DNA from: a virus
Direction: 5' to 3' (one strand)
Length of the DNA: 30,750 nt
Virus record (IMG/VR): IMGVR_UViG_3300045988_021200
Location: 1 to 30,750 of that record
Translations under genes and position numbers: made by a program
The notes under the pieces: model-generated
Databases searched by the model: none
Told to the model about the DNA's origin: nothing
The model's input: the letters and a program-made list of their open reading frames with translations, nothing else
Shown here: positions 13,562 through 19,827 of the stretch, one piece after another
How positions within the stretch are numbered: the first letter of the stretch is position 1
How the letters are laid out: each line of letters starts with the position of its first letter

Positions 13562-13951
13562 ATGGCTATCGGACAGAGAAAGCAAGCTCAGGACAAGATA
13601 GACCGGCGACAATTCGAGACATTGTGCGGAATACAATGCACAGAGGAAGAAATCTGTGCGGTTTTTGATGTGTCTAAAGATACATTGCTTCGTTGGTGCA
13701 AGAGGATATACAAAAAGAGCTTTGCGGATGTTTTCAAGGAAAAAAGAGCGTGCGGAAAGATGGCGCTAAGAAGGAGCCAATGGAAGATGGCAGAAAGAAA
13801 TGCGACGATGGCAATTTGGCTCGGGAAACAATATTTAGGGCAAAAGGATGTTGTTGAGCAGAAATCCGATGTGAAACTGAATAACGGATTCATTGAGGCA
13901 CTGAACGCAGCAGTTGAGGAAGTGGAGAAATGTTCAGATGGCAGCCATTAA
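13562..13951 (+). CDS. terS: Terminase small subunit (HTH type)
   Basis: It lies immediately upstream of and overlaps TerL. FETLCGIQCTEEEICAVFDVSKDTLLRWCK and MAIWLGKQYLGQKD resemble small terminases of Firmicutes phages. ATG 13562 follows AAAGGGGGG. Confidence 0.6.
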   Translation: MAIGQRKQAQDKIDRRQFETLCGIQCTEEEICAVFDVSKDTLLRWCKRIYKKSFADVFKEKRACGKMALRRSQWKMAERNATMAIWLGKQYLGQKDVVEQKSDVKLNNGFIEALNAAVEEVEKCSDGSH

Positions 13952-15189
13952 GCCCGAAACAGTTCAGCATCTTTTCATGGTGGAATAGCGAAAGCAAGTA
14001 TTCCGATATGGACGGAATCATTGCAGATGGCTCCATCCGTTCCGGAAAGACCGTAGCGATGGGGACAAGCTTCATCATGTGGGCGATGGAATCATTCGAG
14101 GGGGAGCAGTTCGCCATATGTGGTAAGACATTAGGAGCGCTAAGAAGAAACGTGCTCTCACCGATGCAGAATGTTTTACCAGATATGGGTTATGAAATAT
14201 CAGAGAGCCGCATCGAAAACAAGTGGACGGTTAGGCACGGAGACAACGTGAACACCTTCTACTTGTTCGGAGGTAAAGACGAAAGCTCACAGAACCTTAT
14301 TCAGGGCGTCACGCTTGCGGGGGTCCTATTCGACGAAGTGGCACTGATGCCGGAATCATTCGTGAATCAGGCAACAGCACGTTGTTCCGTAGAAGGTTCG
14401 AAATGGTGGTTCAACTGCAACCCGTCAACGCCGTTCCACTGGTTCAAGGTGAACTGGATAGACCGGAGAGAAGAAAAGAATCTTTTGTACCTGCATTTTG
14501 AATTGGACGACAACCGGAGCCTATCGGAGCACATCAAAGACCGATACCGGAGCATGTATCAAGGCGTGTTCTACAGGCGCTATATCCTCGGAGAGTGGGT
14601 AGCAGCGGAGGGCATTATCTATGATATGTTCAACGAGAATCGGCACGTCACAAAGGAGAAATTCAAGCCCGTGGGCGATGTTTACGTGTCGTGCGATTAC
14701 GGAATACAGAATGCAACTGTTTTCCTTATGTGGGCGAAAATAAAAGGCATATGGACATGCATTCGGGAGTATTGCTATTCCGGAAGGGCAAACCTAAAGC
14801 AGAAAACGGATGCGGAATTTGTTCAGGATATGAAGATGTGGCTAGACGGCACGATACCGAAAAGGATTATCGTTGACCCGTCAGCCACTTCTTTTATTGC
14901 AGAACTCAGGAAGAATGGTTACACGGTCAAGCGGGGCATGAACGACGTACTGGACGGCATACGGTACACGTCAACGGCGCTCGGGAGAGGAGAACTGATG
15001 TTCGTTTCTGATTGCGTGAATACCATTCGAGAGTTCCACTCCTATATGTGGGATTTGAAGTCAGCGGATGCCGGAGAGGATAGACCGCTGAAAGAGCATG
15101 ACCACTGCATGGATGCGATGCGATATTTCACGTACACAATCATGAGACAAGAAAAAGTTAAAGTTAAGGGATTCAAAGAGGGAATCTAA
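13930..15189 (+). CDS. terL: Terminase large subunit (PBSX-type)
   Basis: Walker A-like ADGSIRSGKT, Walker B-like VLFDEVA, a C-terminal nuclease region with acidic residues, 419 aa. It precedes the portal. Confidence 0.9.
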   Translation: MFRWQPLSPKQFSIFSWWNSESKYSDMDGIIADGSIRSGKTVAMGTSFIMWAMESFEGEQFAICGKTLGALRRNVLSPMQNVLPDMGYEISESRIENKWTVRHGDNVNTFYLFGGKDESSQNLIQGVTLAGVLFDEVALMPESFVNQATARCSVEGSKWWFNCNPSTPFHWFKVNWIDRREEKNLLYLHFELDDNRSLSEHIKDRYRSMYQGVFYRRYILGEWVAAEGIIYDMFNENRHVTKEKFKPVGDVYVSCDYGIQNATVFLMWAKIKGIWTCIREYCYSGRANLKQKTDAEFVQDMKMWLDGTIPKRIIVDPSATSFIAELRKNGYTVKRGMNDVLDGIRYTSTALGRGELMFVSDCVNTIREFHSYMWDLKSADAGEDRPLKEHDHCMDAMRYFTYTIMRQEKVKVKGFKEGI

Positions 15190-16607
15190 TGCACACCAAA
15201 AGACCATACGAATTACCAAAGCCAATCACGGCGGACCCGTCAATACTGGAGCATATCACGCCTCAGTTGATAGAGGGGTACATCAATAAGCACGAGAGCA
15301 AATTCAAGCGCTATGAATACCTTGAAAACCTATACAAGGGGTTTCACGACGTATATAGACAACCGGAAAAGGAAAACTGGAAGCCCGACAACAGACTGGC
15401 GGTTAATTTCCCCCGGTACATCACAGACACCTTCCTAGGCTATGCCTACGGCGTACCGATTAAGTGCACAGCACCGGAAGACTCAGAGAATGAGCGGCTG
15501 AAAGAATTCTATCGGGACAACGAAATGAACGACCACGATTCAGAGATGGCGAAAATGTGCTGCATCTATGGACACGCATGGGAGTTCTTCTATCAGGACG
15601 AAGAGACCAATACCAAAGTAGTCGCCTATAATCCGAAAGACCTATTCTGTATTGTCGATGATACAGTACAGCGCCGGGCACTGATGATGATTCAGTACGG
15701 GCGGCACACGGTGGACGGCGTGAACAACGGTGTGCTTTACGGCATGGCAGCGACGGCAGACACGATTTATTACTTTGATAACGGAAAGTTAACCGGCGAC
15801 AAAGAGAACCCATACGGCTTAATCCCTTGCGTTGAGTGGCGACTGAACGAGGAGCGCATCGGACTTTTTGAGGGCGTGGCAGGACTTGTGGAGACGTACA
15901 ACAGGACACTGGGAGAGAAGGCAAATGATGTTGATGCGTTTGCGGAGGCTTATTTGGCAGTTATCGGGTCCGAGCTTGACGATGAGGACGTGTACCGCAT
16001 CCGGGACAACCGAATCATTAACCTTTACGGTACAGATAACGCAAGGGATATCTTGGTGCAGTTCATGACCAAACCAACGGCAGACGGCACACAAGAAAAT
16101 CTGCTGAACCGCCTTGAAAATCTGATATATCAGATTTCGATGGTGGCGAATATCTCAGACGAACAGTTCGGAAACGCAAGCTCCGGTGTAGCTTTGGCTT
16201 ACAAGCTGCAGGCAATGAGCAATCTCGCCGTGACTTTTGACCGGAAGATTGAAAAGTCACTCAGGAAGCGTTTCAAGATTTGGTCAAGCCTATCAACCAA
16301 CGTGGCGGATAGGGAAGTGTGGCGGGATATTGATATCAAGTTTACCCGGAATCTTCCAAAGAACCTGCAAGAGGAAGCACAGACCGCTTCACAGCTTGAA
16401 GGTATCGTGTCCAAGGAAACACAGCTTTCTGTTCTGTCCATCGTGCCGGATGTGAAGAAGGAAATTGAAAAGATGGAAGAGGAAGAAGAGGAGCAGATGC
16501 AGCAGTTGAGCATGTATCAGCAGACCATGGGGGCAGTAAATGGCGAAAACAACGCAGGAAATATTTCTGGCGAAAACGAAGGAGAACCGGGATTACTGGA
16601 GAAGTAG
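15189..16607 (+). CDS. Portal protein (SPP1 gp6-like)
   Basis: 472 aa, TAATG-coupled to terL. The size, position and acidic EEEEEQ C-terminus are typical of SPP1-type portals. Confidence 0.85.
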   Translation: MHTKRPYELPKPITADPSILEHITPQLIEGYINKHESKFKRYEYLENLYKGFHDVYRQPEKENWKPDNRLAVNFPRYITDTFLGYAYGVPIKCTAPEDSENERLKEFYRDNEMNDHDSEMAKMCCIYGHAWEFFYQDEETNTKVVAYNPKDLFCIVDDTVQRRALMMIQYGRHTVDGVNNGVLYGMAATADTIYYFDNGKLTGDKENPYGLIPCVEWRLNEERIGLFEGVAGLVETYNRTLGEKANDVDAFAEAYLAVIGSELDDEDVYRIRDNRIINLYGTDNARDILVQFMTKPTADGTQENLLNRLENLIYQISMVANISDEQFGNASSGVALAYKLQAMSNLAVTFDRKIEKSLRKRFKIWSSLSTNVADREVWRDIDIKFTRNLPKNLQEEAQTASQLEGIVSKETQLSVLSIVPDVKKEIEKMEEEEEEQMQQLSMYQQTMGAVNGENNAGNISGENEGEPGLLEK

Positions 16608-17994
16608 AGAAGACCGACAGGCGGTTGTAAACGAGCATACGATGAAAAACATCGATGCCGAAATTCAGCAGATTTACGAGCGGATGGTCCCGGAAATTCA
16701 AAAGGAAATTGAATCGTTCTATCAGAGGTACGCCGATAAAGAGGGAATCAGCCTAGCGGAAGCCAAAAAGAGAGTGTCGAAGTTCGATGTAAAGGCGTTC
16801 GAGGCAAGGGCTGCAAAACTGGTTAAAGACCGTGATTTCAGCGATGAGGCAAACGAGCTGATGAGGCTCTACAATGCAACTATGCGGATTAATCGGCTGG
16901 AGCTTTTAAAAGCGGATATCGGCTTGCATATGATAGACGGATTCGACGACCTAGAGAAGCTGACCGGAGAAAAGCTGACCGAGGAAGCCGTGAAGGAGTT
17001 CGAACGGCAAGCGGGAATCTTAGGGAATGGCGTTAAAGGTGCATCCGAAAGAGCTAAAAGCCTAGTGGGGCAGTCTTTCATGAATGCCACATTCAGCGAA
17101 CGCATATGGAGCAATCAGGAAGCCTTAAGAAATAAGCTATCCACGATACTCACAAAGGGCTTGATTGGTGGTAAGAGCTATCAAAGCCTTGCGGCGGAGA
17201 TTCGGAAGGATTTCAACGTATCGGCAAGGGAAGCAATGAGACTGGTTCGAACTGAAATGGTCCGGGTGCAGACACAGGCTCAGATTGATTCGTACAAGGC
17301 GAACGGATGGGAAGAGTTCGAATTCTTAGCATACGGCACGGCATCATGTGAGATATGCAACGCCCTAAATAAAAAGCATTTCAAGATATCGGATTTTCAA
17401 CCGGCAGAGAATGCGCCGCCAATGCATCCGAATTGCAGATGTAGGACGGCGCCGTATGAGGATGAAGAAGAGTATCAGAAATGGTTAGATTCGTTCGGAA
17501 ATTCAGGGAAAACCATTGATTCTACCGAGGAAAACAATATAATAAAAGCAAGAGATTTATTAATACCAATGCTTATAACTGGTGCTAGAAATCTTTACAG
17601 CAAGGAAGCAGATGAACATGCTACAAGATATTATGGATTAGTAAGAAGCATGACAACGGATGTTGAAAGGATTTCAAAGACAACAGGCTTCAAGCAAGAA
17701 GACATTCAAGCAGTTAAAGATTTTCTTTTCTATGAAGAGCATGACTTGGGAGATGGAAGGGTTTCAAGGTTTGATTCCGACTACAAAATAGCGGAATCAT
17801 GGCAAAGACTAATCAACGGAACGCCGGAGCCGCACGATATAACGCTCTTAAGGCATGAGATGCTAGAAAGAAAATTGATGAAAGAGGGAATGTCGCAAGA
17901 AAAAGCCCACATAGAAGCATCACGAAAATATAACTATACGAAAGAGGCGGTAGAGTATCATGTTGCGATTGAAAGAAATAAAAAGAGAGGGTAA
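16540..17994 (+). CDS. MuF / SPP1 gp7-family minor head protein with ~175-aa uncharacterised C-terminal extension
   Basis: The gp7/MuF core VRTEMVRVQTQAQIDSYKANGWEEFEFLAYGTASCEICNALNKKHF...PPMHPNCRCRTAPY ends near 17460. The remainder, to 17994, is an extra AT-richer domain. Confidence 0.85.
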   Translation: MAKTTQEIFLAKTKENRDYWRSREDRQAVVNEHTMKNIDAEIQQIYERMVPEIQKEIESFYQRYADKEGISLAEAKKRVSKFDVKAFEARAAKLVKDRDFSDEANELMRLYNATMRINRLELLKADIGLHMIDGFDDLEKLTGEKLTEEAVKEFERQAGILGNGVKGASERAKSLVGQSFMNATFSERIWSNQEALRNKLSTILTKGLIGGKSYQSLAAEIRKDFNVSAREAMRLVRTEMVRVQTQAQIDSYKANGWEEFEFLAYGTASCEICNALNKKHFKISDFQPAENAPPMHPNCRCRTAPYEDEEEYQKWLDSFGNSGKTIDSTEENNIIKARDLLIPMLITGARNLYSKEADEHATRYYGLVRSMTTDVERISKTTGFKQEDIQAVKDFLFYEEHDLGDGRVSRFDSDYKIAESWQRLINGTPEPHDITLLRHEMLERKLMKEGMSQEKAHIEASRKYNYTKEAVEYHVAIERNKKRG

Positions 17995-18202
17995 TTTACT
18001 ATCAGCAATTTATGACCCAGAGGCAACTGGTATTTTGGGTCGTGTGTGTATCAACATTCACACGAAGAGCCCGGAAGACGGTGTAATATCAAAATATGAA
18101 AATGCGGAATACCCAGATTATTATTATCATGCGCTCAAGGCATTGAGAAATATTGTAAACGAAGATGATATACCAGCAGAACGGCTTGTAATGTGGTATT
18201 AA
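17960..18202 (+). CDS. 80-aa hypothetical protein overlapping the MuF 3' end (candidate partner/immunity protein)
   Basis: Its ATG overlaps the MuF stop region by 35 nt, consistent with translational coupling. It is AT-rich like the MuF extension. A strong terminator follows. Confidence 0.55.
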   Translation: MLRLKEIKREGNLLSAIYDPEATGILGRVCINIHTKSPEDGVISKYENAEYPDYYYHALKALRNIVNEDDIPAERLVMWY

Positions 18203-18263
18203 CACGTACCCATAAAGCCCTATAACCGCTTTTAAATGTAAACTCAAATTATATCTATGAAGA

Positions 18264-18291
18264 AAAATCGCTCATTACAGGGCGATTTTTT
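18264..18291 (+). terminator. Rho-independent terminator
   Basis: AAAAATCGC (18264..18272) pairs with GCGATTTTT (18282..18290), and a T-run follows. Confidence 0.8.
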
Positions 18292-18381
18292 GTATACCAT
18301 TTTTCTGGGGTGTCCAAGCATTTATGACACTAAACTGTATGGAATATCAAGCATTGCGATGTAAAACACATGGAGGAAATT

Positions 18382-18930
18382 ATGGCAGAAGAAATGAACA
18401 ATCAGAACACAAACGCAAACACTGACCCGAAAACCGAGCCGAATACTCAGACCGAGCCGAAAGGCGGAGCGGAGCCGGAAAAGAAGTATTCGGATGAAGA
18501 CCTTGATAAAATCATCGGTCAGAAATACGCAAAATGGAGTGAAAAGACCGATAAAGCTATCGAGGATGCCAAAGCGGAGGCGGTCAAGCTGGCGAAAATG
18601 AACGCAGAGCAAAAAGCCGCCTATGAATCAGAGCAGAAGGACCTTAGAATTGCGGAAATGGAAGCACAGCTGCAGAAAATCGCACTGGGCAAGGTTGCCG
18701 GGGAGATTCTCAAGGAGCAGGGCATGGATGCTACACAGGACATTCTGGACATGGTCGTAGGCACCACCGCAGAGGACACAAAAGCACAGGTGGAAGCGTT
18801 CGTGAAGCTGGTCAATGCACAGGTTGAAATCCGGGAAAGACAGCGGGCGACAGGTACCACGCCGAAATCTTACACCGGAGCGGAACCACTGAGCGAAATT
18901 GAACAGCGGATTGCAAAGTACAGGAAGTAA
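18382..18930 (+). CDS. Capsid scaffolding protein
   Basis: It is acidic, helical and coiled-coil-like (AKAEAVKLAKMNAEQKAAYESEQKDLRIAEMEAQLQK) and lies directly upstream of the major capsid gene. ATG 18382 lies 5 nt after GGAGG. Confidence 0.75.
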   Translation: MAEEMNNQNTNANTDPKTEPNTQTEPKGGAEPEKKYSDEDLDKIIGQKYAKWSEKTDKAIEDAKAEAVKLAKMNAEQKAAYESEQKDLRIAEMEAQLQKIALGKVAGEILKEQGMDATQDILDMVVGTTAEDTKAQVEAFVKLVNAQVEIRERQRATGTTPKSYTGAEPLSEIEQRIAKYRK

Positions 18931-18942
18931 AAGGAGTAAATC

Positions 18943-19827
18943 ATGGCAGGTGAAAACAATAATCAGGCAGTAAGACGTTATACCAAGGAGTTTAAGGACC
19001 TTATGCAGGCGGTATTCCAGAGCAGAGCGTTCTTTGGAGACTTTTTCGGCGGCGGTATCGAGGCACTGGACGGAATTCAGGAAAATCAGACCGCATTCAG
19101 CGTTAAGACTTCCGACATTCCGGTAGCGGTAGGCACTTACAGCACCGAGGAGAACACTGCATTCGGAACCGGAACGGGAAAGTCCAACAGATTCGGCAAC
19201 AGAACCGAGATTATCTATACCAATGCGGATGTTCCTTACAGCTGGGGCTGGAGCTTCCACGAAGGAATCGACCGGAACACGGTTAACAACGACTTCAACA
19301 CGGCGGTGGCTGACCGTCTTGAGCTGCAGGCACAGGCAAAGACGAACCAGTTCAATACCCATCACGGAAAGTTCATTTCCGATAGCGCCGCTGAGACAAT
19401 CGAGGCGGCAGCACTCACCGAGGAAGAGGTTGTAAAGGCATTCAACGCCCTTGCAAAGTACTTTGTGAACATTGGGGCGGTTGGTACCAAGGTAGCAAAG
19501 GTTACACCGGATGTATGGAACATCATTGTTGACTCCAAGCTCATGACTACCTCAAAGGGTAGTTCTGTTAACGTGGACAACAACACAGTGAACACCTTCA
19601 AGGGTTTTCAGCTTGAGGTGATTCCGGATGCAATGTTCCAGAAGAACGAGTGCATTTACGCTTACATCACCGGAATCGGTAAGGCGTTCACCGGCATTCA
19701 GACTGCTAGAACCATCGAATCCGAGGATTTCGACGGCTTGGCACTGCAGGGAGCCGGTAAAGCGGGTGAGTACATTCTCCCGGCTAACAAGAAGGCGGTT
19801 GCAAAGGTTACAGCTACGGTAGCATAG
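18943..19827 (+). CDS. Major capsid protein
   Basis: 294 aa with a strong AAAGGAG RBS. Its position after the scaffold and its composition are typical of SPP1 gp13-type capsid proteins. Confidence 0.8.
   Translation: MAGENNNQAVRRYTKEFKDLMQAVFQSRAFFGDFFGGGIEALDGIQENQTAFSVKTSDIPVAVGTYSTEENTAFGTGTGKSNRFGNRTEIIYTNADVPYSWGWSFHEGIDRNTVNNDFNTAVADRLELQAQAKTNQFNTHHGKFISDSAAETIEAAALTEEEVVKAFNALAKYFVNIGAVGTKVAKVTPDVWNIIVDSKLMTTSKGSSVNVDNNTVNTFKGFQLEVIPDAMFQKNECIYAYITGIGKAFTGIQTARTIESEDFDGLALQGAGKAGEYILPANKKAVAKVTATVA

Follow-up and report, generated by a model that had tools for sequence, protein, structure and literature searches.

In this study, we analysed a 30,750-nucleotide (nt) stretch of viral DNA (IMG/VR record IMGVR_UViG_3300045988_021200, positions 1 to 30,750; the whole stretch is called the window), in which the gene of a MuF-type minor head protein is extended at its 3' end and overlapped there by a small gene for a protein of 80 amino acids (aa). 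We believe that nt ~17527-18291 probably form a mobile two-gene cassette of the polymorphic-toxin type, which is grafted onto the 3' end of the MuF gene and which, judging from comparative sequence data, would encode an effector and its cognate neutraliser. At the gene level, the pattern consists of an exchange of C-termini on the same MuF core, the pairing of the extra domain with the small gene, decay on one side of the pair, orphan partner genes, cassette arrays and a terminator. A preliminary description of the window had proposed the architecture of MuF polymorphic toxins or polyvalent proteins, and this proposal is supported by the allele swap, the pairing at ~169 of 169 loci, the one-sided decay, the orphan partners and an array that also holds an Ntox50 toxin. 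The MuF gene and the cassette are made up as follows:

16540..17994, plus strand: gene of the MuF (SPP1 gp7-type) minor head protein, 484 aa, carrier of the candidate effector domain of the cassette
17134..17454, plus strand: conserved MuF core, aa 199-305, which closes with the motif PPMHPNCRCRT
17497..17583, plus strand: predicted disordered linker, aa ~320-348, which holds the recombination junction (17527-17546)
17584..17991, plus strand: candidate C-terminal effector domain (C-domain), aa 349-484, 136 residues, all-alpha, a previously undescribed family
17960..18202, plus strand: gene of the 80-aa partner (candidate immunity protein or inhibitor), which overlaps the MuF open reading frame (ORF) by 35 nt
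18262..18291, plus strand: intrinsic-terminator-like hairpin with a 12-bp stem, a 6-nt loop and a U-tract, which closes the cassette before the scaffold gene

The MuF core was recognised by PF04233 (aa 199-303, E 8.6e-18) and by TIGR01641 (aa 202-305, 1.8e-24). The limits of these two matches place the end of the core near nt 17455, in agreement with the position near 17460 that had been given for it, and the ~175 additional codons that had been claimed after the core were counted as 177. The AlphaFold2 model of these C-terminal 177 aa was based on an alignment of 59 sequences. Its predicted local distance difference test (pLDDT) score was below 50 at residues 13-41 of the query, which correspond to MuF aa 320-348, and above 90 from ~aa 352 to 484, where the model has seven helices and one beta-hairpin. 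The foreign domain had been described as beginning at ~aa 308; the folded part is here narrowed to aa ~349-484, and aa ~320-348 are predicted to be a disordered linker. As listed, the MuF ORF also overlaps the portal ORF by 68 nt (16540-16607), and its start is uncertain: the gene was called 34 codons further downstream in the near-identical locus L001 (450 aa) and at the 484-aa start in L002, and the analysis of the C-terminus is unaffected by this.

The exchange of the C-terminus was found in both directions: homologous cores can end in different C-termini, and one C-terminus can be attached to cores of different kinds. The MuF core of P0066/L177 is 96.2% identical in nucleotides to that of the window over 17125-17546 and then continues into an unrelated C-terminus, and the two MuF proteins are identical through ...GKTIDST (aa 329). 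The alternative C-terminus is also AT-rich, with a guanine plus cytosine content (GC) of 0.40, and has its own overlapping small ORF. Because the homology between the two cores ends at 17527-17546, the recombination junction sits in the disordered linker. On the same L177 contig, positions 1-159 match window 3095-3253 (92.5%) and are joined directly to the middle of MuF (window 17125 onward); the contig may be what is left of a prophage after large deletions that spared the cassette, or else its assembly is chimeric.

Ninety representatives of at least 300 aa that carry the C-domain were used to describe its carriers. A recognisable MuF-type core is present in 74 of the 90, with PF04233 in 39, PF06152 in 31 and VG15 in 4. 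The C-domain ends within 25 aa of the protein C-terminus in 187 of 203 proteins examined. It also terminates two large proteins, one of 1080 aa with PBECR3 and one of 1306 aa with LPD3, and each of these is then followed by an ORF of 78-81 aa ending in MWY. The LPD3 case lies at the lysis end of a prophage (L181:4001-11921), past Amidase_2 and XhlA-like genes, where two consecutive LPD3 proteins (1306 aa and more than 1163 aa) are encoded, the first of which ends in the C-domain and is followed by the 81-aa partner. Therefore, the cassette is not confined to head modules.

These carriers bear directly on whether the extension is an ordinary structural or morphogenetic part of MuF, in which case the 80-aa ORF would be a small head-assembly or decoration protein. 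Both genes lie between portal and scaffold, the profile phrog_115 ('minor head protein'), which matches MuF with 1.5e-109, aligns as far as aa 428, and deposited genomes label such proteins 'minor head protein' or 'head maturation protease'. We consider a structural role highly improbable, however, since the same core occurs with another C-terminus and the pair is found far from head modules, beside housekeeping genes, behind PBECR3 and LPD3 proteins of the polyvalent type and in cassette arrays with Ntox50; moreover, the base composition of the cassette is unlike that of the head module. The question of whether the C-terminus is a fixed part of the MuF fold, which had been left to a comparison of homologs, is thus answered in the negative by P0066/L177 and by the presence of the domain on PF04233, PF06152 and non-MuF carriers.

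The pairing of the domain with the small gene was examined in 177 loci, namely 16 context loci, 80 species-representative genomes, 80 of the 389 IMG/VR contigs that encode the domain, and the window itself. A recognised ORF of ~80 aa overlaps or abuts the stop codon of the domain in 166 of 170 intact domain copies, and the four exceptions are accounted for by a contig end (L039), an in-frame fusion (L045) and two small ORFs that are divergent and have AWY or AWH at their end (L176 6400..6627 and L089 2392..2643). After these were resolved, ~169 of 169 assessable intact domains have the partner ORF downstream, and the idea that domain and small ORF swap as a unit is supported. In the window, a small downstream ORF of less than 150 aa, as is typical of MuF polymorphic toxins, is present as the 80-aa ORF with its 35-nt overlap. 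The fusion in L045 (3935-4657, a Faecalibacterium metagenome-assembled genome (MAG)) is a single ORF of 240 aa, in which the C-domain is joined in frame to the partner without the first ~12 residues of the latter; it may hint, in the manner of a Rosetta-stone fusion, that the two proteins interact physically, or it may be an artefact of assembly or deletion.

The decay of the pair was one-sided. The domain is truncated or frameshifted in nine loci (L003, L005, L006, L008, L009, L010, L024, L043 and L052), and the small ORF is full-length in all nine; an intact domain beside a damaged small ORF was found in none of the 177 loci. The ratio of nonsynonymous to synonymous substitutions (dN/dS) of the small ORF was 0.10-0.24, and that of the orphan copy in L008 was 0.10-0.13, which indicates that the orphan small ORFs are under purifying selection.

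Strict co-occurrence would fit any obligate heteromer equally. The pair could thus be an obligate, non-toxic unit of two subunits, in which the C-domain is a virion-delivered regulator or nucleic-acid-binding module and the 80-aa protein is a cofactor, a chaperone for folding or packaging, or a specificity subunit. We regard this as unlikely. It does not predict that decay strikes the domain in nine loci and the small ORF alone in none, that orphan partner genes are kept under purifying selection, or that the pair occupies a slot in a repeat-bounded array together with Ntox50.

The array in question was found in a Selenomonadales MAG (L089; CALFJC010000116.1, 500-6100), where at least five tandem cassettes lie between direct repeats of ~300 nt. 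The repeats encode the 3' end of MuF and the junction (NAPPLHPRCRCT...YKEWR), and they also hold a fragment of a DNA methyltransferase N-terminus (MIYNDDCLEGMKKI...). The cassettes encode Ntox50 (PF15542, E 2e-18), a glutamine-deamidase-like (Gln_amidase-like) protein below threshold, an HExxH protein and two C-domain variants, each of which has its own small ORF. In L176, two tandem cassettes of domain and small ORF share the junction MAGVEGRRYVP.

Many copies of the cassette stand alone. In the species genomes, fewer than 100 aa precede the domain in 33 of 78 intact copies, and the upstream neighbours that were checked are RNase J, PheS, an EAL protein, an S-layer (SLH) protein and an M50 peptidase. 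The number of such chromosomal copies beside housekeeping genes speaks for a prophage moron of the toxin-antitoxin or abortive-infection kind, which would act in the lysogen from its own promoter in addiction or anti-phage defence, with the fusion to MuF as a by-product of the insertion site. Remnants that outlast the decay of the prophage point the same way, for example L011 and L015, the latter a 1.5-kb remnant between SpoIID and PEPCK. Yet, on viral contigs, 59 of 71 assessable copies are fused in frame to carriers of 250 aa or more, and most long representatives have the MuF-type core described above. That the reading frame is kept across at least three families of carriers is an argument for the importance of carrier-mediated delivery. 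PADLOC gave no defence-system match either, and we consider the moron explanation quite unlikely.

The base composition and the signals around the cassette were then compared with those of its surroundings. Along the window, GC drops from 0.47-0.49 to 0.36-0.41 between ~17300 and 18350; it is 0.474 in the MuF core, 0.375 in the cassette (17527-18291), and 0.485 and 0.49 in the flanking head genes. The AT-rich character that had been ascribed to the extension and the small ORF was thus confirmed (37.5% GC in the cassette versus ~48% in the flanks). In related loci, the GC of the cassette is below that of the upstream flank in 154 of 157 and below that of the downstream flank in 155 of 165, with a mean deficit of 8.9 and 7.6 points, respectively. 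Because the deficit is general across loci whatever the GC of the host, it is an intrinsic property of the cassette, and AT-richness as a sign of recent transfer was rejected.

The hairpin that closes the cassette has a folding energy of -14.9 kcal/mol (z = -4.96), and none of 200 shuffled sequences folds as well. The terminator previously placed at 18264..18291 is thereby confirmed at 18262..18291. A consensus terminator scanner did not report this hairpin, most likely because the A-tract of the hairpin is paired with its U-tract. Of 173 related loci, 107 (62%) have a hairpin with a T-run 3' of the small ORF, compared with 5.4% of 591 control windows. At 17516-17543, exactly at the cassette junction, the sequence TTGATT-16-TATAAT matches a sigma-70-like promoter in 10 of 12 positions. 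Together with the terminator, this promoter-like site gives a moron-like layout that, from the sequence, could express the small ORF in lysogens, and the AT-richness, the conserved terminator and the promoter-like site are all points in favour of the moron explanation. On the other hand, promoter-like sites in the AT-rich stretch are only ~2-fold enriched (9 versus 4.7 expected).

The C-domain belongs to a large family. A profile search of 1.84 billion representative proteins gave 2342 clusters at E <=1e-3, of which 524 were at <=1e-30; the clusters are defined at 50% identity, and 2342 is a lower bound. The domain is encoded on 389 IMG/VR contigs. Conservation was measured over 196 representatives and the 90 long proteins, and residues H360, Y364, Y365, R369, D374, K393, H401, S420, W421, R423, H432, D433, H439, E440, E443, Q453, H457, N465 and Y466 (MuF numbering) are conserved at 90-100%. 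The near-invariant set includes the pattern H439-E440-x-x-E443 ... H457 (HExxE...H) and an HD doublet. This dense group of ~19 near-invariant polar residues looks like an active site, and it resembles one more than it resembles the binding surface expected of a non-toxic heteromer. With low confidence, we guess that the domain may be a metal-dependent hydrolase, and 'HExxE...H zincin-like or HD-like hydrolase' is likewise a guess from the motifs. HEPN (Rx4-6H), HNH-type HH, HExxH zincin and canonical HD patterns were looked for, and none is convincingly present in the domain. A comparison of motifs with the catalogued all-alpha toxins Ntox28, Ntox32, Ntox44, Tox-HET-C, Tox-HTH, Tox-Doc and Tox-PLA2 (PMC3482391) also gave none that fits.

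Searches of the C-domain against Pfam-A, the function labels of PHROGs, NCBIfam, PADLOC and the PDB sequences gave no match, with profiles taken to E 10. The absence of a nameable signature, as stated in the preliminary description, was borne out by Pfam, NCBIfam, PADLOC and the PDB sequences. Five divergent relatives likewise had no match in the sequence-family libraries. The matches to an SSO1393-like winged helix (E 0.01), a Dicer-related helicase (E 0.33) and SarR (E 0.16) were treated as noise of the library search. Several Foldseek matches of the domain to sigma-factor region 2 had TM-scores of ~0.16, and these matches were rejected.

The 80-aa ORF had been described at 17960..18202 with a 35-nt overlap of the MuF stop, and it is present exactly as described. 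A Shine-Dalgarno-like AAGAGG lies at 17942-17947, 12 nt upstream of its ATG. The partner family has 253 clusters, nearly all of 77-85 aa, whose members typically begin with MLxLK, end with VMWY and share a PE and an HA motif. The AlphaFold model of the partner, based on 115 sequences, has a pLDDT of 93.3 and shows three or four strands followed by a helix and one last strand (beta-beta-beta-alpha-beta). The size of this family, the dN/dS values and the confident model answer the question of coding conservation in the affirmative. No match was found for the partner in Pfam-A, NCBIfam, PADLOC or the PDB sequences, again with profiles to E 10, and a Foldseek search of its model against PDB gave nothing at E <=0.001. 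Foldseek ranked the immunity protein Tni2 (6b12_B) first, with E 0.96 across 39 columns, which we treated as a chance match. Both models, that of the domain and that of the partner, were confident and had no known fold relative, and the domain is regarded as uncharacterised.

A second type of small ORF of ~80 aa (type 2), with the pattern M.W.VKL..IAYS.E..CDG...IG, pairs with more divergent domains, mostly in Selenomonadales. CDMH1 gp5 and Javan330_0028 are intermediate sequences, a hint that types 1 and 2 may form a continuum. In 15 of 176 loci, a small winged-helix gene of the YjcQ family (PF09639) lies within 700 nt of the small ORF, usually just downstream (L011:4794-5114, L013:5044-5427, L008:4663-4899 and 12 other loci); the window has none. 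This gene could be a second immunity-like or regulatory gene.

Several results weigh against a cassette of effector and neutraliser. In the databases searched, neither the C-domain nor the partner has homology or fold likeness to a known toxin, enzyme or immunity protein; for the model of the C-domain, Foldseek against PDB and BFVD gave only E values of at least 0.5 and TM-scores below 0.25. No domain recognised as a toxin in the MuF polymorphic toxin family was found in the extension; the one indirect pointer in that direction is the array of L089, where the domain takes the same kind of slot as Ntox50. Homology between small ORFs of types 1 and 2 was unsupported (hhalign probability 0.3%). 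It has been reported that, of the MuF toxin domains, 75% are shared with further families of polymorphic toxins (PMC5576092), and among the 90 long C-domain representatives no LXG, WXG, RHS, CDI (contact-dependent inhibition) or similar toxin-delivery domain was found. Finally, the actinobacterial protein P0274 (5865 aa) has four internal copies of the C-domain and no small ORF downstream on the same strand. Therefore, the fold is neither always partner-dependent nor always terminal. P0274 is encoded on a high-GC contig (L182:5001-22598), and its copies, at aa ~1985-2074, 2125-2216, 4379-4472 and 5566-5685, retain the HE..E, AH and N motifs.

The same observations favour the two-subunit explanation, in which the domain is a regulator or binding module: four copies exist without a partner gene, the domain is unlike any known toxin, and its carriers, among the 90 long representatives and the PBECR3 and LPD3 proteins, are of the MuF or polyvalent kind, with no other toxin-delivery domain. 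That explanation may also draw on a helix-turn-helix-like segment, alpha2-alpha3, and on weak Pfam matches to winged-helix or helix-turn-helix families (PF22165, E 0.01; HTH_29, E 0.04). As set out above, one-sided decay, orphan partners, the Ntox50 array and the near-invariant polar residues are not what it predicts, and we still believe that an effector with its neutraliser is the probable nature of the pair.

The cassette was compared with known systems. MuF polymorphic toxins were described by Zhang et al. 2012 (PMC3482391) and Jamet et al. 2017 (PMC5576092). Only Apk2, a (p)ppApp synthetase, and Bxa, an ADP-ribosyltransferase, have been characterised (PMC11699363, PMC12226406), and the biological role of MuF toxins has been described as unknown (PMC11699363). 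Most MuF C-terminal extensions carry no known domain (Jamet et al., PMC5576092). The window shares with these toxins a MuF gene after the portal gene, a temperate Firmicutes phage, a variable C-domain and a small downstream ORF; in addition, the cassette is exchanged between MuF families and orphan cassettes exist. In contrast, the C-domain and partner of the window fall outside the catalogued toxin and immunity families and have no fold match, and none of the 90 long representatives shows the C-domain joined to a toxin-delivery domain of a non-MuF system. Unlike Apk2 and Bxa, which are accompanied by Aph1 or ARH-type hydrolases, the window has no enzymatic second immunity protein, and its domain is a candidate toxin.

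Polyvalent proteins, described from phages and conjugative elements (Iyer et al. 2017, PMC5512222), also combine virion-associated MuF, PBECR or LPD domains with effectors, and the C-domain ends proteins with PBECR3 and LPD3; at the domain level, the link through these carriers is real. However, polyvalent proteins have 2-15 effector-type domains (PMC5512222), whereas the protein of the window has two domains only, MuF and the C-domain, and its domain is tightly coupled to a dedicated small gene, which is more like toxin and immunity. None of the LPD, PBECR and MPTase families of Pfam corresponds to the C-domain. The tandem cassettes of L089 and L176, with a junction at the 3' end of the carrier and an own small ORF for each, are similar to the orphan arrays of CDI (cdiA-CT/cdiI) and Rhs systems, but the carrier is a phage head protein instead of a secreted filament or Rhs shell, and the window has a single cassette. 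SPP1 gp7 and phage Mu gpF are essentially single-domain (PMC5576092); the window MuF has the same core (PF04233, TIGR01641) and the same post-portal position, but adds a linker and a foreign domain of 136 aa. The coupled, AT-rich two-gene pair with its own terminator and stand-alone persistence in chromosomes resembles type II toxin-antitoxin systems and phage morons. Unlike these, the toxin-like gene comes first and is usually fused in frame to a virion protein. In the partner, an antitoxin domain that binds DNA could not be recognised, and no match to known toxin-antitoxin or defence models was found: neither protein matches Pfam, NCBIfam or PADLOC, and the partner has no significant PDB match.

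Minor head proteins of the SPP1 gp7 type are enclosed in the capsid and exit together with the DNA. If the MuF core behaves like SPP1 gp7, it would carry the fusion into the procapsid at the portal and come out with the DNA. The flexible linker of ~30 residues would tether the 136-aa domain and leave it free to act. One late transcript would serve for both proteins, with the 80-aa protein translated by coupling through the 35-nt overlap, and this protein would most likely bind and block the domain in the producing cell. The newly infected cell would receive the MuF-effector fusion without the partner, and the domain would act there, either as an interbacterial toxin or as an effector of host takeover or anti-defence. 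Recipients that express the partner by itself would be protected against the domain, and so would lysogens and genomes in which the small ORF is all that remains. The gene-level pattern is observed; packaging, toxicity, direct binding, and an enzymatic activity with its target are our inferences. Going further, we speculate tentatively that the C-domain may be a metal-dependent enzyme of a new fold, near-specific to capsid-delivered carriers of the MuF and polyvalent kinds and among the commonest cargoes of temperate phages of gut Clostridia; that it would be an injected early effector, which reprogrammes the cell or disarms its defences, instead of a bactericidal toxin used in competition; and that the 80-aa protein may be a dedicated inhibitor kept by lysogens and decayed prophages to blunt incoming phages. 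Taken jointly, these points are possible but doubtful.

The genome of the window is that of a temperate, siphovirus-like phage of gut Clostridia, with integrase and repressor, a MuF-superfamily domain just after the portal gene, and scaffold and major head genes downstream. Its other lysogeny and replication genes include an Erf-like protein, a DnaD-like loader and a ParB/methyltransferase. The genes that frame the cassette or mark the lifestyle are as follows:

1074..2249, minus strand: integrase (phrog_1, 5.5e-58)
2200..2736, minus strand: repressor
13930..15189: TerL, with TerS also among the packaging genes
15189..16607: portal gene, directly upstream of MuF
18370..18930: scaffold gene, downstream of the cassette
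18943..19827: major head protein gene

Among deposited phages, a nucleotide search with the window gave only one match, of 10%, to Dorea phage DO134P1. MuF polymorphic toxins are encoded by temperate phages or prophages, mostly of Firmicutes, and the window conforms to this. Relatives occur in Lachnospiraceae, Ruminococcaceae, Oscillospiraceae, Selenomonadales, Peptoniphilus, Streptococcus and the Clostridioides difficile phage CDMH1, with Clostridia, Negativicutes and Tissierellia among the classes represented, and this context agrees with PMC5576092 and PMC11699363. The pair itself is present in the deposited phages CDMH1 (gp4/gp5), Streptococcus prophages Javan330 and Javan583, S. suis phi20c and phi5218, and a Staphylococcus pseudintermedius phage. 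In CDMH1 (NC_024144.1; L178:2412-4113), gp4 is MuF with the C-domain, and the partner gene is gp5, which encodes 83 aa and is annotated as 'hypothetical'. The gp4 protein is labelled 'head maturation protease' in RefSeq and 'putative minor head protein' in GenBank, and the former label seems to have been carried over from another annotation, as with phrog_595.

The architecture of MuF polymorphic toxins is already known; what is new is an undescribed effector-domain family and an undescribed partner family within the MuF framework. This analysis gives a name and boundaries to one large group of the MuF extensions without a known domain, with at least 2342 clusters and 389 IMG/VR contigs. The domain and its partner are attractive because of the size of the family, the confident models without fold relatives, the clear candidate active site and the culturable phages. 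The family is abundant in Clostridia of the gut and rumen, and it is also present in tractable systems, namely CDMH1 gp4/gp5 and prophages of Streptococcus suis and S. mitis, which offer a route to testing what capsid-delivered effectors do. In lysogens and in genomes with decayed prophages, the partner gene may mark immunity to incoming phage.

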